Of a stretch of 61,710 nucleotides of DNA, positions 687 through 9,017 are shown piece by piece. This DNA is from a candidate division TM6 bacterium UASB340 (GTDB lineage Bacteria; Babelota; Babeliae; Babelales; UASB340). A program made the translations under genes and the position numbers. Position 1 is the stretch's first letter, and each line of letters opens with the position of its first letter. Location: assembly GCA_001468925.1 (NCBI GenBank), contig LDIX01000006.1, positions 1-61,710 on the forward strand, written 5' to 3'. The notes below the pieces were generated by a model. The model was given only the letters and a program-made list of their open reading frames with translations. It searched no databases and was not told the DNA's origin.

Positions 687-3080
687 ATGAAATTTATAAA
701 ACGATTTGAAGAGTTGTGTATAAACGATATTTCGTTAGTGGGTGGTAAAAATGCTTCATTAGGTGAAATGATTCAACAGCTTACAAAAAAGGGTGTTTTA
801 ATTCCATCAGGATTTGTTATTACTGCAGATGCATATAAATATTATTTAAAGTTTAATAATTTAGATAAAAAAATAAGTTTATTATTAAAAAATATTAATA
901 AAAATAAATTAAAAGAATTTGCCTTTATAGGCAAAAAAATAAGGGATTTAATTTATAATGCCACTTTACCGCAAGATTTGGAAAAAGAAATTTTGCAAAG
1001 TTATAAAGATATGCAAAAAAAATATGGCAAAACATGTTCGGTTGCAGTGCGATCATCTGCTACTGCAGAAGATTTACCAGAAGCTTCTTTTGCAGGGCAG
1101 CAGGATACTTATTTAAATATTTCCGGTGAAAAAGAATTGCTAAATTCTTGTAAAAAATCTTTTGCATCTCTTTTTAATAATAGAGCTATTTCATATAGAA
1201 TTGATCATGGTTTTGATCATATGAGTGTTTATTTATCTATTGGTATACAAAAAATGGTTAGATCCGATATGGCTAGTGCGGGTGTTGCATTTACACTTGA
1301 TACGGAGTCTGGATTTAAAGATGTTATTTTTATAAATTCTTCATATGGTCTTGGTGAAAATGTTGTTCAAGGATCTATTAGTCCTGATGAATTTTATATT
1401 CATAAACCTACTCTTGAAAAAGGTTTTGCACCAATTTTAAAAAAGAGATTAGGTTCTAAAAATAAAAAATTGATTTATTCAGGAAATTTAAATAAACCGG
1501 TAAAAAATATTTTAGTTAAAGAACAAGATAGATTAAAATTTTCACTAAGTGATAGTGAAATTTTAGATATAGCTAAACAGTGTTTAATTATAGAAAAACA
1601 CTACTCTGATTTAAAAAATAAATGGGTTCCCATGGATATTGAGTGGGCAAAAGATGGATTTGATAATAAAATTTATATAGTTCAAGCAAGACCTGAAACT
1701 GTGCATTCTTTAAAACAAGATCAAAATTTTACGCAAGAATATATTCTTGATACAAAAAATAAAAATAAAATTTTAGTGACCGGTAAAAGTGTTGGAAGAA
1801 AAATAGCCACAGGTAAAGTTCGTGTAATTTCAAACGCAAAAAATATGCATCAAGTTTTACCAAATGAAATTTTAGTTACTGACATGACAGATCCTGATTG
1901 GGAGCCAATAATGAAGAAAGCTGCCGGAATTATTACAAATCGAGGCGGTCGAACTTGTCATGCTGCAATTGTAAGTAGAGAAATAGGTATTCCTGCTATT
2001 GTAGGTGCTATTGGATCTACAAATAAATTAAAAACGGGAGATATTGTTACTATGGATTGCAGTAGTGGGGATATTGGATATGTTTATTCAGGAAAAATTA
2101 ATTTTAAAATAGAAAAAATAGAACTCAAAAAAATACCAAAATTAAAAACAGAAATATTTACAAATATTGGTGATCCGGATGAGGCATTTAATTTTTCTAA
2201 ATTACCGGTACAAGGTGTAGGTCTTGCTAGACTTGAGTTTATAATTAATAATACTATAAAAATTCATCCATGCGCACTTGTTGAACCGAAAAAAGTTTTG
2301 TTAAAAAATGATAAAAATTTAATAAATAAATTAACTTTTGGGTATAAAGATAAAAAGCAATATTTTATAGATAAATTGGCTCAAGAAGCCGGAACTATTG
2401 TTGCTGCATTTTATCCAAAATCTGTGATAGTAAGACTTTCAGATTTTAAGAGCAATGAGTATAAACAACTTATTGCAGGTAAATATTTTGAGCCGGTTGA
2501 AGAAAATCCAATGTTTGGATTTAGAGGTGCTTCAAGATATTATAGCGAAAAATATAGATATGCATTTAGGCTTGAATGTTTAGCTATGAAAAAAATTAGA
2601 GAAGATATGGGGCTTGATAATCTAATTATTATGATTCCATTTGTTCGAACTATAAAAGAGGCTGAATTGGTTTTAGCTGAAATGAAAAAGCACGGACTTG
2701 AACGTGGTAAAAATGGCTTACAAATTTATATGATGTGTGAAATCCCATCAAATGTAATATTAATTGAAAAATTCAGTAAATATTTTGATGGTTTTTCTAT
2801 TGGTTCCAACGATTTAACACAAACAACTTTGGCAGTAGATAGAGATTCTGAACTGGTAGCAGATATTTTTGATGAACGTAATGAAGCTGTAAAAAAAATT
2901 ATATCTATGGCTATTTCAGGAGCTAAAAAGAGTGGTGTAAAAATTGGAATATGCGGGCAAGCTCCGTCCGATTATCCTGAAATAACGGAATTTTTGATTA
3001 AAGAAGGCATAGATTCAATTTCTTTAAATCCGGATACGGTGATGAAGGAAATTATTTTGCTCTCTAAAAGTAAGATGTAA
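687..3080 (+). CDS. ppsA: phosphoenolpyruvate synthase (pyruvate, water dikinase)
   Basis: 797 aa. Phosphohistidine swivel motif TNRGGRTCHAAIVSREIGIPAIVG. N-terminal ATP-grasp region (VGGKNASLGEM) and a C-terminal PEP-utilising TIM-barrel region. Confidence 0.93.
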   Translation: MKFIKRFEELCINDISLVGGKNASLGEMIQQLTKKGVLIPSGFVITADAYKYYLKFNNLDKKISLLLKNINKNKLKEFAFIGKKIRDLIYNATLPQDLEKEILQSYKDMQKKYGKTCSVAVRSSATAEDLPEASFAGQQDTYLNISGEKELLNSCKKSFASLFNNRAISYRIDHGFDHMSVYLSIGIQKMVRSDMASAGVAFTLDTESGFKDVIFINSSYGLGENVVQGSISPDEFYIHKPTLEKGFAPILKKRLGSKNKKLIYSGNLNKPVKNILVKEQDRLKFSLSDSEILDIAKQCLIIEKHYSDLKNKWVPMDIEWAKDGFDNKIYIVQARPETVHSLKQDQNFTQEYILDTKNKNKILVTGKSVGRKIATGKVRVISNAKNMHQVLPNEILVTDMTDPDWEPIMKKAAGIITNRGGRTCHAAIVSREIGIPAIVGAIGSTNKLKTGDIVTMDCSSGDIGYVYSGKINFKIEKIELKKIPKLKTEIFTNIGDPDEAFNFSKLPVQGVGLARLEFIINNTIKIHPCALVEPKKVLLKNDKNLINKLTFGYKDKKQYFIDKLAQEAGTIVAAFYPKSVIVRLSDFKSNEYKQLIAGKYFEPVEENPMFGFRGASRYYSEKYRYAFRLECLAMKKIREDMGLDNLIIMIPFVRTIKEAELVLAEMKKHGLERGKNGLQIYMMCEIPSNVILIEKFSKYFDGFSIGSNDLTQTTLAVDRDSELVADIFDERNEAVKKIISMAISGAKKSGVKIGICGQAPSDYPEITEFLIKEGIDSISLNPDTVMKEIILLSKSKM

Positions 3081-3086
3081 TTTTTT

Positions 3087-3524
3087 TTACATCCTTAACA
3101 TTTCAGGATATTGTTTAAGATAATAGCATATGTTGTTTTTGCCCTGCTCATAATCAGCTCTTTCGGATGGACAATTTTGAGAAGAACAGTCGTAAGTTTT
3201 TATATAAATTGTTACCGTTTTTCCGTCCGGAATATTAATATCTTTGCTTAATGCAATATTATCACTTCTTCGGCTTAAGCTTCCTTTTCCTCTGGTTAAG
3301 TTTGAATCTTGAGCGGTAGCTTTTATTGTAAAGTTACTTGGCATATTATTAAATGTGTGGGCATCACCGTTGTTATTTAAAATACATTCGCCTTTTCCCG
3401 TATTTTGCTCAAATATGTCTATATCCCAAGCGGTATTTGTTTCATTTATAACTTTAATTGTTATTTCTGCATTACAATAACTATGAAAGATAGAAAATAA
3501 TATAATTAAATAGATATTCTTCAT
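3087..3524 (-). CDS. small secreted Cys-containing protein, unknown function
   Basis: Likely start is the ATG at 3524 (MKNIYLIILFSIFHSYCNA/E) with a GGGGA RBS upstream. The TTG at 3536 in the track is less likely. Signal-peptide-like N-terminus with several Cys in the C-terminal third. Confidence 0.6.
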   Translation of the reverse strand: MKNIYLIILFSIFHSYCNAEITIKVINETNTAWDIDIFEQNTGKGECILNNNGDAHTFNNMPSNFTIKATAQDSNLTRGKGSLSRRSDNIALSKDINIPDGKTVTIYIKTYDCSSQNCPSERADYEQGKNNICYYLKQYPEMLRM

Positions 3525-3611
3525 AACATCCCCCAAAAATCCCTAAAAACACTAAAATTACACTTAACTAAACATAATTTTAGATTAATTTATGTTTAAA
3601 ATTCAAGCTTT

Positions 3612-3932
3612 TTATTTAATCTCTAACTTATCGCCTATTTTGGATATGGTAAAAATTCTTGCTCCGGTTATTTTACTTTCAAATTTTACTTCTAGGGCAT
3701 CACTTTTTGCTGTAATTGTTAATGTTGCCGGGTTCATAAGTGTAGTTTCAAATCCGTTTAATCCTAAATTTTGAAAATTAAAATCACCAATTGTTCTTGG
3801 AATTCCATCAACTTCAACTTTTATAACAATCGGTGATTGTAAATTTGGATCTTTTTGTACTGTGATTGTGAATGAATAAATTTGGGCTAAACTTAAAAAA
3901 GTAAAAAAAATAGCTAAAAATAGCTTTTTCAT
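3612..3932 (-). CDS. small secreted beta-rich protein, unknown function
   Basis: MKKLFLAIFFTFLSLAQIYS/F signal-like N-terminus. Strong AAGGAGA RBS upstream of the ATG. Shares sequence landmarks with the neighbouring ORF at 3087-3524. Confidence 0.65.
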   Translation of the reverse strand: MKKLFLAIFFTFLSLAQIYSFTITVQKDPNLQSPIVIKVEVDGIPRTIGDFNFQNLGLNGFETTLMNPATLTITAKSDALEVKFESKITGARIFTISKIGDKLEIK

Positions 3933-4025: not shown

Positions 4026-4337
4026 TTGTTTATATATATAGTTTACTTTGGAATTTATATGTTTTTTTTAATAGCTAAATCAGTTTTTGTTGGGATTTTA
4101 TTTGGTGTCTTATACGCTTTTTTATTTTTTAATAAGCTTTATAAATTTATTTTTGGTTCAGTAGGTAAAAATATTATTAAATATAGTATAAATACAGCAT
4201 TAAATTTTATAGTTTTAATCTCTATTTTTGTTTTGCTTTACTTTGTATTTAAAATTAATTTAATAATTACAGTGCTTTCTTTTAATATTTCGTTTTGGGT
4301 TATAATTTTATATGAACTTAAAACTTATAAAAAATAG
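4026..4337 (+). CDS. small polytopic membrane protein, AtpI-like by position
   Basis: About 100 aa and almost entirely hydrophobic (3-4 TM). Sits immediately upstream of atpB, where atpI normally sits. Start is ambiguous (TTG at 4026 or ATG at 4059). Confidence 0.45.
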   Translation: MFIYIVYFGIYMFFLIAKSVFVGILFGVLYAFLFFNKLYKFIFGSVGKNIIKYSINTALNFIVLISIFVLLYFVFKINLIITVLSFNISFWVIILYELKTYKK

Positions 4338-4346
4338 GTTAAATAA

Positions 4347-5183
4347 ATGAATATATCTATTTTTGACGAAAATGTTATAAAACCGTTCGAGTCTTTAGGA
4401 CTTAGTAGTAAATTTTTTCATATTAATATAAGAACATTAATATACACCTGGGTAGCTATGGCAATAATTTTTTTATTAGTTTTTATAGCTAGAATTTTTA
4501 TGAAAAAAAATTTAAACCCGGTATCTTTGATTGTGCAAGAGTTTGTTGGATTTTTTGATAATCTTTGTAAAGAATCATTTGGTTCTGTTTTTAAATATGA
4601 ATATTTTGCATTTACTTCATCAATATTCTTTTTTACTTTATTTGGATGTTTGGTTGGATTATTACCGTTTTTTGATGAAACAACAAAAGATATAAATACT
4701 GCTTTTGCTATTGGCACAATGGGTTTTTTGTATGTTCAGTATCAAAAAATAAAAGTTTTGGGATTAAAACATTTTTTAAAAGAATTTATTGAACCTATTT
4801 TTATCATGTTACCCCTAAATATTATTGGAGAATTGGCTAAAGTTGCCTCCATGTCATTTCGATTATTTGGAAATATTTTGGGTGGATCTATAATTTTTTT
4901 GATAGCCATAAATTCTTTATCAAAATATAAAGCATTTTTTATAATATTTTCTTTGGTAAGTTTGATTTTATATTTTATTTTAAATTATTTTATTGATTTA
5001 AAAAAATATAAAATTGTTAATTTGATATTAAAATCATGTTTAGTCGCAGTATTTTTTTTAGCAGGAGCACAAATATTTTTCGGAATATTTGAAGCCTTTG
5101 TGCAGTCATTTGTTATTACAATGCTTACTATTACCTATCTTGCTGTTGCTATAAACGAAAATGAAAGTGAGGTAAAGGCATGA
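4347..5183 (+). CDS. atpB: F-type ATP synthase subunit a
   Basis: 278 aa polytopic protein. Conserved stator arginine motif SFRLFGNILGG. ATGA overlap with the following c-subunit gene. Confidence 0.88.
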   Translation: MNISIFDENVIKPFESLGLSSKFFHINIRTLIYTWVAMAIIFLLVFIARIFMKKNLNPVSLIVQEFVGFFDNLCKESFGSVFKYEYFAFTSSIFFFTLFGCLVGLLPFFDETTKDINTAFAIGTMGFLYVQYQKIKVLGLKHFLKEFIEPIFIMLPLNIIGELAKVASMSFRLFGNILGGSIIFLIAINSLSKYKAFFIIFSLVSLILYFILNYFIDLKKYKIVNLILKSCLVAVFFLAGAQIFFGIFEAFVQSFVITMLTITYLAVAINENESEVKA

Positions 5184-6142
5184 TCTCTCCTCAAAGTTTA
5201 CATTATATGGCTGTTGGGCTTGCTGTTTTATTAGGTGCAATTGGTGCCGGAATAGGACAAGGGTTTGCTGCATTTGGTTCATTAAGTGCTTTAGAGGTTC
5301 AATCTGAGGGAAGAGACCAAATTTTTAGATCTATGATAGTAGGACTTGCTTTTATAGAAAGCGGTATAATCTTAGCTTTGGTTATTACTCTAATGCTTCT
5401 TTTTGGAAACACAATTAACATTAATTACGGAATAGCTTTTGCCGAACTTGGTGTAGGTTTGATGATGGGTATTTCAGCTTGTGCGATAAGTATATCTTCA
5501 AGTTTTGCTGTAAAATCCAGCGTTAATTCAATTTCAAGACAACCTATTTTTGCCAATAAAATATTGACGTTTATGCTTGTGTCACAATCTTTGATTGAAG
5601 CATCCGTAATATTTTCTTTTGTGATTGGTTTAATTATTGTTGGAAATTTTAGTTTAATTAGTGATTTTTTTGTTGGACTTAAATATTTTAGTACATCAAT
5701 AGTAATGGCTTTAGGTTCAATTGGTACAAGTATAGGACAGGGTGTTTTTTCAAATGCATCTTGTTCTACCGTTGGAATGAATAGAGACGCTTATCCTAAA
5801 CTTTTTCCATTTTCTATTATAAATGGAGCCGTTATTGAAACATCTTTAATATTTTCTTTATTAACTGCATTATTGATTATATATATACCTACTACTCCTG
5901 AAAATTATTTTATAAATTCTGTAGTTTTTTTGACTGCAGCTTTTACCGTAGGCATTGGAAGTATCGGTACTTCAACAAGTACCGGATTGGTTGGATCAAA
6001 AAGTGTTATGCAAATAGTTTATAATCCTGAAAATTATGCAGCTTTATTTAGATCAAATATTTTAGCTCAAGCTTTTATAGAGTCAGCATCAATTTATTGT
6101 TTAATAGTTGCATTGGCTCTTTTAACTTTGTTTGCACGATGA
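5180..6142 (+). CDS. atpE: F-type ATP synthase c subunit, four tandemly fused hairpins
   Basis: 320 aa made of 4 units of about 80 aa. Each unit has a Gly/small-residue helix 1, a polar loop (EGRDQ / SRQP / NRDAYP / YNPEN) and a helix 2 carrying Glu. The Glu residues are E60, E140, E220 and E301 (codons at 5357, 5597, 5837 and 6080). Confidence 0.85.
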   Translation: MISPQSLHYMAVGLAVLLGAIGAGIGQGFAAFGSLSALEVQSEGRDQIFRSMIVGLAFIESGIILALVITLMLLFGNTININYGIAFAELGVGLMMGISACAISISSSFAVKSSVNSISRQPIFANKILTFMLVSQSLIEASVIFSFVIGLIIVGNFSLISDFFVGLKYFSTSIVMALGSIGTSIGQGVFSNASCSTVGMNRDAYPKLFPFSIINGAVIETSLIFSLLTALLIIYIPTTPENYFINSVVFLTAAFTVGIGSIGTSTSTGLVGSKSVMQIVYNPENYAALFRSNILAQAFIESASIYCLIVALALLTLFAR

Positions 6143-6146
6143 ATAT

Positions 6147-7217
6147 TTAAACGCTTTGATCTGAAAAAAGCCCTGTTTCATGAAATGCAAATGATTTTGC
6201 TTTTGCATTTAATAAAGTTTTTAGTAAAGATTCTTTTTTACTTACTATTCCTTGGTCTTGTTCTTCAAGCTCTAAAAAAAATGCAGAACCGTTTGCAATA
6301 TCGTTTTCTATTTCTTCATAAAAGTCTGTAGGAAGAGTTGAACCTACTAATGTTAAAAAGTAGTTAAATCTTATTGTTAATGACCATAACATATCGTCAA
6401 GATCATCCATATGATCAAGAATTTTATGTTCTGCCAGTCTTACAAGGTTATTTGCAATAGAAAGAACCGATCCCCATATATTTTGATAATGTTTACTATC
6501 CCAAATAAGTTTTGAGATTGTAATTTCTATAAAACGAATTAGTAAATTTCTAAAGCGTTCTTTCATATAATATTGTTCTTTATTTGTATCAATTTGGTTT
6601 ATTTCATTTTTGGTAATTTGGCTTATTTCTTTTGCTAATTCCGATATAAATTCATTTGAATTTGCTTGAAAATCATTTAGATGTTCTGAAAATTTAAATA
6701 AAATTGTTTTTTCGATACTTTTTTTAAGATATTTCAAACTTATTTTCTCATTATTTTTTTCTTCAAAATATCTTTCTATAAGTCTTGGCAATGGATTTAG
6801 TATTTGCAATAAAACAGTATCGTCTACAAGTTCGCAAGCTTTTATTTTATTATAAAAAAGTCTTATACAGGTATATAATGGGTTTAACGATAATTTAAGC
6901 TCTTCGCTTAATTCTAAAAATTCATTAAAGTGTATGGCATTTTGTGATAAAAAATTTGGATAAACGTTACTGTTGTAAATTTCTTTTACATATTTACTAA
7001 GAACTTGGTTAAATATTGAAGTTTTAGATTGAATATTATTTTTTGTTTCATCTTGATATGGAGAATAATTTAAATAATATTTTATACTAATTGTGCTATA
7101 TTGAGATGGTATCATTGAGCCCAGATAATTATTTATATCAAAATTATCTGCACAAATATTAGTAAAAAATATGGTTATATAGCTCATAAACAAAACTATC
7201 AAATTTTTTATTTTCAT
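6147..7217 (-). CDS. secreted helical protein, unknown function
   Basis: 356 aa with N-terminal MKIKNLIVLFMSYITIFFTNICA/D signal-like segment. No motif recognised. Confidence 0.65.
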   Translation of the reverse strand: MKIKNLIVLFMSYITIFFTNICADNFDINNYLGSMIPSQYSTISIKYYLNYSPYQDETKNNIQSKTSIFNQVLSKYVKEIYNSNVYPNFLSQNAIHFNEFLELSEELKLSLNPLYTCIRLFYNKIKACELVDDTVLLQILNPLPRLIERYFEEKNNEKISLKYLKKSIEKTILFKFSEHLNDFQANSNEFISELAKEISQITKNEINQIDTNKEQYYMKERFRNLLIRFIEITISKLIWDSKHYQNIWGSVLSIANNLVRLAEHKILDHMDDLDDMLWSLTIRFNYFLTLVGSTLPTDFYEEIENDIANGSAFFLELEEQDQGIVSKKESLLKTLLNAKAKSFAFHETGLFSDQSV

Positions 7218-7294: not shown

Positions 7295-7336
7295 ATTTTT
7301 TTTTACAAGTAAAAAAATATAAAGTTGGAGTTTTAT

Positions 7337-8554
7337 ATGCCACTGTACAAATATGAGTCCTATAATCGTAGTGGTAAAATTGTTTCCGGAACAATAGATG
7401 TGTCATCTTTGGACATGGCTAAAAAAACCTTACAAGGCCAAGGATTAATGCCTTTTCGGATAGAAGAATTTGGTTCGGATAAAATTGAAGCTTTTGCAAT
7501 TTCTTTTTTTGAGCCACAAATTGATATAAAAACAAAAATAATTTTCACCAAACAACTTGCCGTTTTATTAAAGGCCGGTGTTCCATTGTTACAAGCATTG
7601 GAACTTTTAATAGAGCAATTTGAAAAAAAATTTAAGCGCATTTTAATTAATGTAAAAGATGGTGTAAAATCTGGAAATTCATTTGCAAGTGAACTTGGAA
7701 AATATCCAAAAGTATTTTCAAATATTTATGTGCAACTTGTAAGAGCCGGCGAAGCCAGTGGTAAATTACATCTTATTTTAGAAAAACTGATTGATTATAT
7801 GGCTCGTGAAGAAGATACTAAACAAAGAGTTAAAAAGGCTACGAATTATCCGATGTTTGTTTTAGGATTTTCTGCTTTAGTTGTTATTGTTCTAATAAAA
7901 GTTTTAGTTCCAAGAATAACCGATATTTTTGTAAAAATGAGTAAAACCGAATTGCCCGGGCCTACTTTGTTTTTGAAAAATGTTTCAGATTTTTTAAATA
8001 ATAATTTTTTCTCTATATCTATAATATTTACTGTTATATTTTTATTATTTTTATATTGGAAATCAACCCAAAATGGAAAAAAATCTCTTGATGAATTGTT
8101 TTTAAAAATTCCTATGATTTCTTATTTTTCAAAAACCAAAGCTGTTGTTCAGTTTTGTCAGACATTGGGAATACTTTTAAGTGCCGGAGTTAATTTGGCG
8201 GAAAGTTTGGATATAGTTTCCAATATTGTCGAAAATTCCGTTTTGCACGATAAGTTGGAAATAGCTAAGGGCAATATTATAAAAGAAGGTAAAATAGCCA
8301 AATATCTAAAACAAACTGAAATTTTTCCCAATATAGCTACTTATATGATTGAAACCGGTGAGCAGTCCGGAAATTTGGATAACATGCTTTTGACAGTTGG
8401 AGTTGATTATGATGAAGAATTAAAAAATATCATAGATGGGTTGGTTGCAAAAATTGGGCCTATTACTACAATAATTACCGGATTGATAATAGGTTTTATA
8501 GTTATATCGGTATTTTTACCTATAGCAAGTATGGGTGATTTATCAGGAGTATAG
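7337..8554 (+). CDS. gspF: type II secretion / type IV pilus inner-membrane platform protein GspF
   Basis: About 405 aa with duplicated T2SS-F domains and three hydrophobic segments. Start reassigned to the ATG at 7337, with a GGAG RBS at 7327-7330. First gene of an F-G-H-I-J-K order. Confidence 0.88.
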   Translation: MPLYKYESYNRSGKIVSGTIDVSSLDMAKKTLQGQGLMPFRIEEFGSDKIEAFAISFFEPQIDIKTKIIFTKQLAVLLKAGVPLLQALELLIEQFEKKFKRILINVKDGVKSGNSFASELGKYPKVFSNIYVQLVRAGEASGKLHLILEKLIDYMAREEDTKQRVKKATNYPMFVLGFSALVVIVLIKVLVPRITDIFVKMSKTELPGPTLFLKNVSDFLNNNFFSISIIFTVIFLLFLYWKSTQNGKKSLDELFLKIPMISYFSKTKAVVQFCQTLGILLSAGVNLAESLDIVSNIVENSVLHDKLEIAKGNIIKEGKIAKYLKQTEIFPNIATYMIETGEQSGNLDNMLLTVGVDYDEELKNIIDGLVAKIGPITTIITGLIIGFIVISVFLPIASMGDLSGV

Positions 8555-8578
8555 TTTTTTAAATATATAGGAGTTTTT

Positions 8579-9007
8579 ATGAAAAACAGTAAAGCATTTA
8601 CGCTTATAGAAATTATGGTTGTCTTGGTGATTATTGGTTTTATTGTATCTTTAATTGGACCAAGAATATATAAAAAATTTGCACAAAGTGAAAGATATAA
8701 AACTGAGATTATATTAGGTAAACTTAAGGGCGCTATTTTAGAATATAAAATGGATATGGGGCATTATCCTAAAAAACAGGAGGGTGGTCTTAGAGCTTTA
8801 GTTGATAGGCCAAATGTTCCAAATAATGAAAAATGGAATGGACCATATGTTGACAGTGATTCTGATTTACAAGATGCATGGGCACAAGATTTTGAATACA
8901 ATAGTCCTGCGGAAAAATATAAAAATAAATTTAAAATATTTGAAATAATTTCTATTGGTGGTGAAATGGAAACAGATCCGGCAAAAGAGATTGTTGTTGG
9001 AGCTTAA
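8579..9007 (+). CDS. gspG: T2SS major pseudopilin GspG
   Basis: MKNSKA/FTLIEIMVVLVIIG class III signal. GspG-type globular domain (YPKKQEGGLRALV...WNGPY...FEYNSP...). Confidence 0.88.
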   Translation: MKNSKAFTLIEIMVVLVIIGFIVSLIGPRIYKKFAQSERYKTEIILGKLKGAILEYKMDMGHYPKKQEGGLRALVDRPNVPNNEKWNGPYVDSDSDLQDAWAQDFEYNSPAEKYKNKFKIFEIISIGGEMETDPAKEIVVGA

Positions 9008-9017
9008 TAAAAAATCA

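Follow-up and report, generated by a model that had tools for sequence, protein, structure and literature searches.

A four-hairpin F-type c subunit encoded next to atpB in the Dependentiae (TM6), a probable component of a hybrid rotor

In rotary ATPases, the ion/ATP ratio is determined by how many ion sites the c ring contains, and the textbook route from an ATP synthase to a V-type pump is gene duplication with loss of sites. Double-hairpin proteolipids such as NtpK of Enterococcus hirae are well known, and engineered F-type c subunits (c2, c3, and c10; Escherichia coli and Bacillus PS3) have demonstrated that the linkage of hairpins via short periplasmic linkers is compatible with function. 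To our knowledge, natural multi-hairpin F-type c subunits have so far been confined to the double-hairpin c1 of Acetobacterium woodii and of a few acetogens. The A. woodii ring consists of nine single-hairpin c2/3 subunits and one fused c1 (PMC9171764), and in A. woodii and C. aceticum the genes follow the order a, fused c, single c, b (PMC7911925). In archaea, c subunits with 2, 3, or 13 hairpins occur (PMC9171764). Here, we describe a gene for a c subunit with four hairpins, designated c4, which is located on a 61,710-nucleotide (nt) stretch of DNA (the window; G+C content 27%) from the candidate division TM6 bacterium UASB340 (contig LDIX01000006.1), and we compare it with its homologues in other Dependentiae (TM6) and with known rotors. 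Judged by its sequence, c4 is an F-type c subunit, and by its architecture it is a non-canonical one. In the following, c1 without further specification denotes the single-hairpin subunit of the Dependentiae and not the fused c1 of A. woodii.

The c4 gene (5180..6142, plus strand) starts with ATG and comprises 320 codons without internal stop, followed by the stop codon. With 320 amino acids (aa) and four hairpins, i.e. eight transmembrane helices, its product departs from the single hairpin of ~70-90 aa expected of an F-type c subunit. The Pfam family PF00137 (ATP-synt_C) was found in four separate stretches (E value 4.2e-35 for the whole protein), and the NCBIfam models for F0F1 subunit C likewise matched in four stretches. 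The F-type models NF005363 (90.4 bits, cut-off 71) and TIGR01260 (59.6 bits, cut-off 43.95) were passed, whereas the V-type subunit K models NF011483 (49.1 bits, cut-off 188) and NF005124 (27.3 bits, cut-off 127) remained far below their thresholds. A V-type identity is ruled out by these scores, by the neighbouring F-type a gene, and by the OSCP and F-type alpha genes of related genomes. An initial annotation of the window, which was based on the DNA letters and the translated open reading frames (ORFs), had proposed four fused F-type hairpins; both the number of hairpins and the F-type assignment were confirmed, and all helix-1 and loop motifs quoted there were found again. That c4 is a real F-type rotor subunit is in our opinion almost certain.

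The four hairpins follow each other on the plus strand. Hairpin 1 (5180..5413; aa 1-78) combines GIGQG in helix 1 with IESG in helix 2; its site comprises Q27 and E60-S61-G62 with Leu at position +5 from the glutamate (Q...ES), and Q27, E60, and S61 are invariant in the close clade of 26 members. Hairpin 2 (5414..5653; aa 79-158) contains S107 instead of the helix-1 Gln, a canonical SRQP loop, and E140-A141 with Phe at +5, and so has neither the Gln nor the Ser/Thr of the site. In hairpin 3 (5654..5896; aa 159-239), GQG (Q187) is combined with IETS (E220-T221, Phe at +5; Q...ET). Hairpin 4 (5897..6139; aa 240-320) is again devoid of the helix-1 Gln, having T268 at this place (Ala in most relatives), and contains an invariant E301-S302-x-x-x-Y306 motif with the tyrosine at +5. 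The carboxylates are encoded by GAA at 5357-5359 (E60), 5597-5599 (E140), and 5837-5839 (E220) and by GAG at 6080-6082 (E301), and the translation agrees with the positions and the 80/80/81-residue spacing given initially. Units 2-4 share 23-29% sequence identity with unit 1, and the helix-2 Glu is among only five invariant columns. An AlphaFold2 model based on a 26-sequence alignment (mean pLDDT 89.9, pTM 0.88) predicts eight long helices, in agreement with the expected topology, with a single-residue break beside the Glu in helix 2 of hairpins 2 and 3. In a crude Kyte-Doolittle scan, nine hydrophobic segments appeared that overlapped in part, and the individual helices were not separated.

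The partner of c4 is an F-type a subunit of 278 aa encoded by atpB (4347..5183, plus strand). It matches PF00119 (ATP-synt_A) from profile position 2 to 216 of 217 with an E value of 3e-30 as well as the NCBIfam models for F0F1 subunit A, and by eye its translation contains SFRLFGN, which from the E. coli equivalents we take to be the motif bearing the stator arginine, and a C-terminal FVQSFVITMLTITYL. The stop codon of atpB and the start codon of c4 overlap as ATGA, and a Shine-Dalgarno-like GAGG (5169..5172, plus strand) lies within the end of atpB, 7 nt before the c4 ATG. The coupling to a canonical a subunit reported initially is thus present, and adjacency of the two genes is a stable feature, as an a gene was found directly 5' of c4 at every locus fetched (L001-L025, Dependentiae-like and Desulfobacterales). 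The ATGA overlap itself is not conserved, relatives having a short gap instead (e.g. 15 nt in L001). At the Dependentiae-like loci fetched, no b, delta, or F1 gene was present 3' of c4. Directly 5' of atpB, a small hydrophobic ORF of 103 aa (4026..4337, plus strand) with two long hydrophobic stretches shows a weak match to the Pfam family ATP-synt_I (E value 0.48). At 10 loci from nine related genomes, counterparts with 35-51% identity occupy the same slot 5' of a-c4. The ORF is AtpI-like by position, and its product is a possible ring-assembly factor. Small ORF, a, and c4 form the module in which the c4 of Dependentiae always occurs.

The c4 protein belongs to a large family. Twenty-five homologues of 317-320 aa align end-to-end with 53-78% identity and stem from genomes named Dependentiae, TM6, or Babeliales. 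When 1.84 billion cluster representatives (clusters at 50% identity; cut-off E <= 1e-30) were searched with a HMMER profile of the c4 family, at least 188 clusters matched. Most of these have 307-329 aa and align in one end-to-end stretch, which adds more than 130 full-length representatives to the 25 homologues. When profiles of hairpins 1-4 derived from the close clade were scored on the hairpins of distant subgroups, the same-numbered profile was by far the best match for each hairpin in every Dependentiae-like subgroup. This positional orthology indicates that the fusion arose once and is old. On the basis of these comparisons, the family is of single origin and occurs throughout Dependentiae-like (TM6) genomes. 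The survey of related genomes for fused c genes that had been suggested at the outset thus uncovered a whole family, and the question of prior annotation is answered as well: public databases already contain many such proteins, which carry generic names only ("ATP synthase F0 subunit C" or "hypothetical protein"). The profile search also brought up long proteolipid-repeat proteins of 406-968 aa, in which the number of hairpins ranges from about 5 to 12 or more, namely P0116 (968 aa), P0162 (524 aa), P0141 (434 aa), P0057 (411 aa), and P0118 (406 aa); P0116 contains 13 matched stretches and is unusually rich in Trp.

A single-hairpin c gene was searched for by scans of GTDB species genomes, the first sign of it having been a 246-nt match on a second contig (L026) of a c4-bearing metagenome-assembled genome (MAG). 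Such a gene, c1, is encoded in 14 of the 15 related genomes in which c4 was found; the check for a single-hairpin atpE proposed initially was therefore positive for the relatives and negative for the window. In three genomes, c4 and c1 are located on one contig, at distances of about 78 kb (CSMAG_1558; L012/L032), about 77 kb (TM6 GW2011_GWF2_28_16; L019/L035), and about 360 kb (SRP292972_co3_70; L023/L201), which excludes a binning error. The c1 gene heads a locus with the order c1-b'-b-delta-alpha (e.g. L026, 2700-6420; L035, 9962-13632). In TM6 GW2011_GWF2_28_16, this locus comprises c1 with a single PF00137 match, two small b-like ORFs, an OSCP gene (E value 8e-20), and an F-type alpha gene (E value 2e-79). 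No a gene was present near c1 in L026-L037. The sole a gene seen in the relatives accompanies c4, and the stator and F1 genes accompany c1. Over the same 28 genome pairs, the mean identity is 86.8% for c1 and 63.4% for c4; c1 identities between relatives range from 80 to 99%, and 173 close relatives of c1 were found in the protein database. Among the c4 hairpins, hairpin 4 is closest to the c1 of the relatives. Clearly, c4 and c1 are both under purifying selection. In L035 and L026, alpha is followed not by gamma but by an unrelated ORF of 148-156 aa with an N-terminal hydrophobic stretch and a Cys (lipoprotein-like by eye), and a convergent P-type ATPase gene lies 3' of the c1-b'-b-delta-alpha locus. 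Several MAGs that carry Dependentiae-type a-c4 and c1 loci (L018, L020, L023, L024, L025; 31-41% G+C) have been deposited as "uncultured Pseudomonadota" or "Epsilonproteobacteria", labels which look unreliable.

Among proteins of known structure, the fused c1 of A. woodii is nearest to c4. A sequence search of the PDB with the family profile gave this protein (4bem_J, 182 aa) as the best match, with an E value of 9e-20 over hairpins 3-4. The remaining matches were F-type single-hairpin c subunits, no V-type chain appeared at E <= 0.001, and none of the matched chains covered four hairpins. Foldseek with the c4 model also returned 4bem_J first, followed by double-hairpin V-type proteolipids (target-normalised TM score ~0.8; query-normalised <=0.45). 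As in the F1Fo enzymes of A. woodii and C. aceticum, the fused c gene directly follows atpB, a single c is also encoded (in the Dependentiae relatives), and Q...E[ST] motifs are present. Many c4 family members furthermore contain Q...QT in one hairpin, as does the silent hairpin of A. woodii c1. On the other hand, the source c4 has lost no carboxylate (E-E-E-E) and contains four hairpins rather than two, c4 and c1 of the Dependentiae are found in separate loci, and the fusion is an independent, phylum-wide one in an obligate parasite whose enzyme is probably a pump and not a synthase. With the V/A-type proteolipids (E. hirae NtpK, eukaryotic c/c'/c''), c4 shares covalently linked hairpins as part of a rotor ring and, in its wider family, the loss of some carboxylates, but the a subunit that accompanies it is of the F type (PF00119) and not a V-type a/I subunit. 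The repeats of engineered c fusions are artificial and identical, those of c4 are of natural origin and only 23-29% identical.

The ion sites were compared with those of characterised enzymes. The Na+ site involves Gln/Glu32 and Glu65 of one subunit and Ser66 Oγ and Val63 O of the adjacent one, with assistance by Tyr70 and Thr67 (PMC3692424). The corresponding Na+ motif of c subunits is Q...E[ST], and the silent hairpin of the fused c1 of A. woodii and C. aceticum has Q...QT (PMC7911925). The c1 subunits of the relatives (35 sequences) display a complete Na+ signature: Q45 and E78 occur in all of them and S79 and Y83 in almost all, with Ser or Thr at +2. Since an ion site spans two neighbouring hairpins, c4 would fix three different intramolecular sites and share a fourth one with its neighbour. 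The non-equivalence of the sites suggested by the initial annotation is well supported by the residues present, hairpins 1 and 3 having Q...ES or Q...ET, hairpins 2 and 4 being without the Gln, and hairpin 2 having E-A, so that the four sites appear to differ chemically. No member of the close clade deviates from E60, E140, or E301; at the position of E220, 10 of the 26 members have Gln, giving Q...QT in hairpin 3. Among 166 c4-length proteins (Dependentiae family plus Desulfobacterales type), the most common pattern in hairpins 1-4 is E-Q-E-D (58), followed by E-E-E-E (38), to which the source protein belongs, E-Q-E-E (20), E-Q-Q-E (11, ten of them of the Desulfobacterales type), and E-E-Q-E (10). 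In most distant family members, the Glu of hairpin 2 is Gln, and in a few members one carboxylate position is occupied by Met. The retention of all four sites, presented initially as the distinction of this gene, holds for the source protein and not for the family; according to the alignments, it is a clade-specific trait.

We propose that c4 and c1 co-assemble into one heteromeric c ring which turns against the single a subunit. Such a mixed ring is the most economical explanation because c4 and c1 are co-conserved, a single a gene was seen, and A. woodii provides a precedent in both ring and gene order; we lean slightly towards it. Joining the a-c4 and c1-b'-b-delta-alpha modules would restore the order a, fused c, single c, b of A. 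woodii. The initial annotation had restricted the ring to multiples of four hairpins, a constraint that is weakened by the finding of c1 in 14 of the 15 c4 genomes, as a mixed ring may have any number of hairpins. The protein is then still a multi-hairpin part of a probably hybrid F-type rotor, though a less radical one, as this constraint probably does not apply. The enzyme would be a Na+-translocating F1Fo ATPase that operates mainly as an ATP-driven pump and sustains the membrane potential, a mode which is suggested by the lack of a respiratory chain and the import of host ATP in Dependentiae. Genes for an ATP synthase and for ATP/ADP translocases, but none for an electron-transport chain, were present in every TM6 genome studied, and the synthase is thought to work in reverse (PMC4776705; PMC6561590). 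In the ring, c4 would supply its three fixed intramolecular sites plus the one shared with the next subunit, four carboxylates being kept in the source clade. Other clades would have silenced one site (Glu to Gln, in a few cases Met) and thereby lowered the ion/ATP ratio as in V-type enzymes, a classical pump adaptation that the source clade would not have undergone.

Several observations weigh against a mixed, Na+-coupled ring. No F1 alpha or beta gene and no further c gene was detected within the 61.7-kb window by a six-frame Walker-A regular expression search and by tblastn with Dependentiae alpha and c1, so that the presence of c1 in the source genome, which the relatives make very probable, is not seen in the window itself. 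Gamma, beta, and epsilon genes were not located at the Dependentiae loci examined, where only delta and alpha were seen; the atp genes of Dependentiae are scattered, and these three must lie elsewhere. It is c4 and not c1 that adjoins, and here overlaps, the only a gene seen, and all carboxylates are kept in the source protein and its clade, which would also suit a homo-oligomeric (c4)n ring of 8, 12, or 16 hairpins without c1. In the AlphaFold2 model, moreover, the four hairpins have an arc-like arrangement, of which two hairpins can be superposed on double-hairpin V-type subunits (TM score about 0.8). We nevertheless regard a ring of c4 only as unlikely, as c1 is conserved in 14 of the 15 c4 genomes, where it heads the b'-b-delta-alpha operon, as a c1 without a role would not remain 80-99% identical, and as the nearest solved relative, A. 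woodii c1, functions in a mixed ring. A further model has the same a, b, delta, and F1 subunits combined with either a c1-only or a c4-containing ring, depending on the life stage (extracellular or intracellular) or on the ions available, which would provide two ion/ATP ratios. Separate regulation would be possible, as c4 and c1, with tens to hundreds of kb between them, are not part of one transcription unit, and the two proteins evolve at unequal rates. Ring swapping on a single a subunit is without known precedent, however, and the split may just reflect the scattering of atp genes in reduced genomes, as exemplified by L035 with its 148-aa ORF after alpha; we give this model even less credence than a c4-only ring. 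The notion that c4 is a pseudogene, or the product of a wrong assembly of four c genes in tandem, could draw on its unusual length alone and can practically be dismissed. The ORF has no internal stops, the four-unit architecture recurs, with positional orthology, in more than 150 independent full-length orthologues, a unit identity of 23-29% makes a collapse or expansion of repeats during assembly implausible, and the structure is predicted with high confidence. The diverged units and the many full-length orthologues in practice exclude stops or frameshifts at the unit junctions and an assembly chimera, and conservation rules out an artefact or pseudogene.

With respect to the coupling ion, we consider Na+ probable, given the invariant Q...E-S-[ST]-x-x-Y of c1 and the Q...ES/ET of hairpins 1 and 3. 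Not all sites look Na+-competent, since the helix-1 Gln is missing from hairpins 2 and 4 and Ala takes the place of Ser/Thr in hairpin 2. These features would fit an H+-coupled pump of otherwise unchanged architecture, and published reconstructions of Dependentiae metabolism assume proton pumping (PMC4776705; PMC6561590). Against protons stand the c1 signature, whose residues are invariant or nearly so over 35 sequences, and the motifs of hairpins 1 and 3, as signatures of the Q...E[ST] type define Na+ sites in characterised enzymes (PMC3692424; PMC7911925). H+ coupling thus is an alternative to be taken seriously, albeit the less probable one. Taken to its furthest, c4 would be a natural, fixed four-hairpin rotor unit, either in a pure (c4)n ring (8, 12, or 16 hairpins) or among c1 subunits, with four different active sites, possibly of mixed Na+ and H+ type, and with clades that tune the ion/ATP ratio by silencing hairpin 2 or 3. 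Such clades would represent a living series of intermediates on the path from F-type to V-type proteolipids, independent of A. woodii and entered once more in Desulfobacterales; for this combination as a whole, we see rather little chance.

In the searchable literature, we came across neither a four-hairpin F-type c subunit nor an account of Dependentiae c subunits; an article by Brandt and Muller from 2015, which reportedly deals with the distribution of hybrid rotors, may mention such genes. With the c4 family, an F-type subunit of four hairpins is added that occurs across a phylum and whose carboxylate pattern differs between clades (EEEE, EEQE, EQED, and others). Together with its conserved c1 partner, the family offers a natural series in which to test what determines the composition of the rotor, the size of the ring, and the ion/ATP ratio, and whether non-equivalent sites can pass the interface of the a subunit. 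Dependentiae take ATP from their hosts, and the c4-bearing enzyme probably energises their membrane; Na+ coupling, if true, would change the metabolic reconstructions that assume proton pumping. The interest of these findings lies mainly with specialists for rotary ATPases.

A second type of fused c gene was encountered in Desulfobacterales, including Desulfatitalea (P0030-P0043; loci L003-L006 and L106-L185). Here, the operons have the order atpZ-atpI-a-[fused c]-c1-b-b', with a fused c of 323 aa and four hairpins or of 403 aa and five hairpins and a single-hairpin c1 of 81 aa, and thus include the sequence a, fused c, single c, b known from A. woodii. Cultured examples are Desulfosarcina variabilis (NZ_CP159846; L133) and D. 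alkanivorans (NZ_AP021874; L161). The c1 gene thus follows immediately 3' in the same operon, in contrast to its separate locus in Dependentiae. The inner hairpins have Gln for Glu (E-Q-Q-E), the five-hairpin form retains Glu in hairpin 1 only, and the active hairpins contain GEG in helix 1, as in the two-carboxylate motif of Fusobacterium nucleatum. A common origin of the Dependentiae and Desulfobacterales proteins is ruled out by the lack of hairpin-by-hairpin orthology. The Desulfobacterales genes look like candidates for hybrid rotors in cultured bacteria, and in the literature searched no paper describing this family was found.

The surroundings of the atp module are partly conserved. The window is syntenic with TM6 GW2011_GWF2_28_16, where a gene for a pyruvate phosphate dikinase (PPDK) and a small ORF precede a-c4, and an ORF of 356 aa in convergent orientation and then genes for type II secretion come after it. 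The convergent ORF lies right after c4 (6147-7217, minus strand) and has no significant Pfam match (best E value 0.06); it is found at the same position with 54-58% identity in three related genomes (L001/L002/L019, L011, L012). It separates a-c4 from the downstream genes, and in other relatives the neighbours differ, e.g. a glycosyltransferase or BamA. A cluster resembling type II secretion or type IV pilus genes extends from 7325 to 11861 (plus strand), starting ~1.2 kb 3' of c4; its GspF-like and pseudopilin assignments derive from the Pfam domains of the syntenic genes in L001 (T2SSF, T2SSG, N_methyl). In L007 and L009, which are more distant relatives, this cluster is not kept next to a-c4. 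At 13883-16139 (plus strand), a tandem pair of ORFs (371 and 377 aa), each with an N-terminal signal-like hydrophobic stretch, is syntenic with two Pkinase/PK_Tyr_Ser-Thr genes in L001; by this synteny, they probably encode eukaryote-like Ser/Thr kinases, which may possibly serve as effectors in host interaction. Upstream of the atp module, an ORF of 797 aa (687-3080, plus strand) agrees in length and synteny with an L001 gene containing PPDK_N and PEP-utilizers domains, and its product probably is a pyruvate phosphate dikinase or an enzyme similar to phosphoenolpyruvate synthase. Between this ORF and the atp module, small minus-strand ORFs whose products look secreted are located at 3087-3932.

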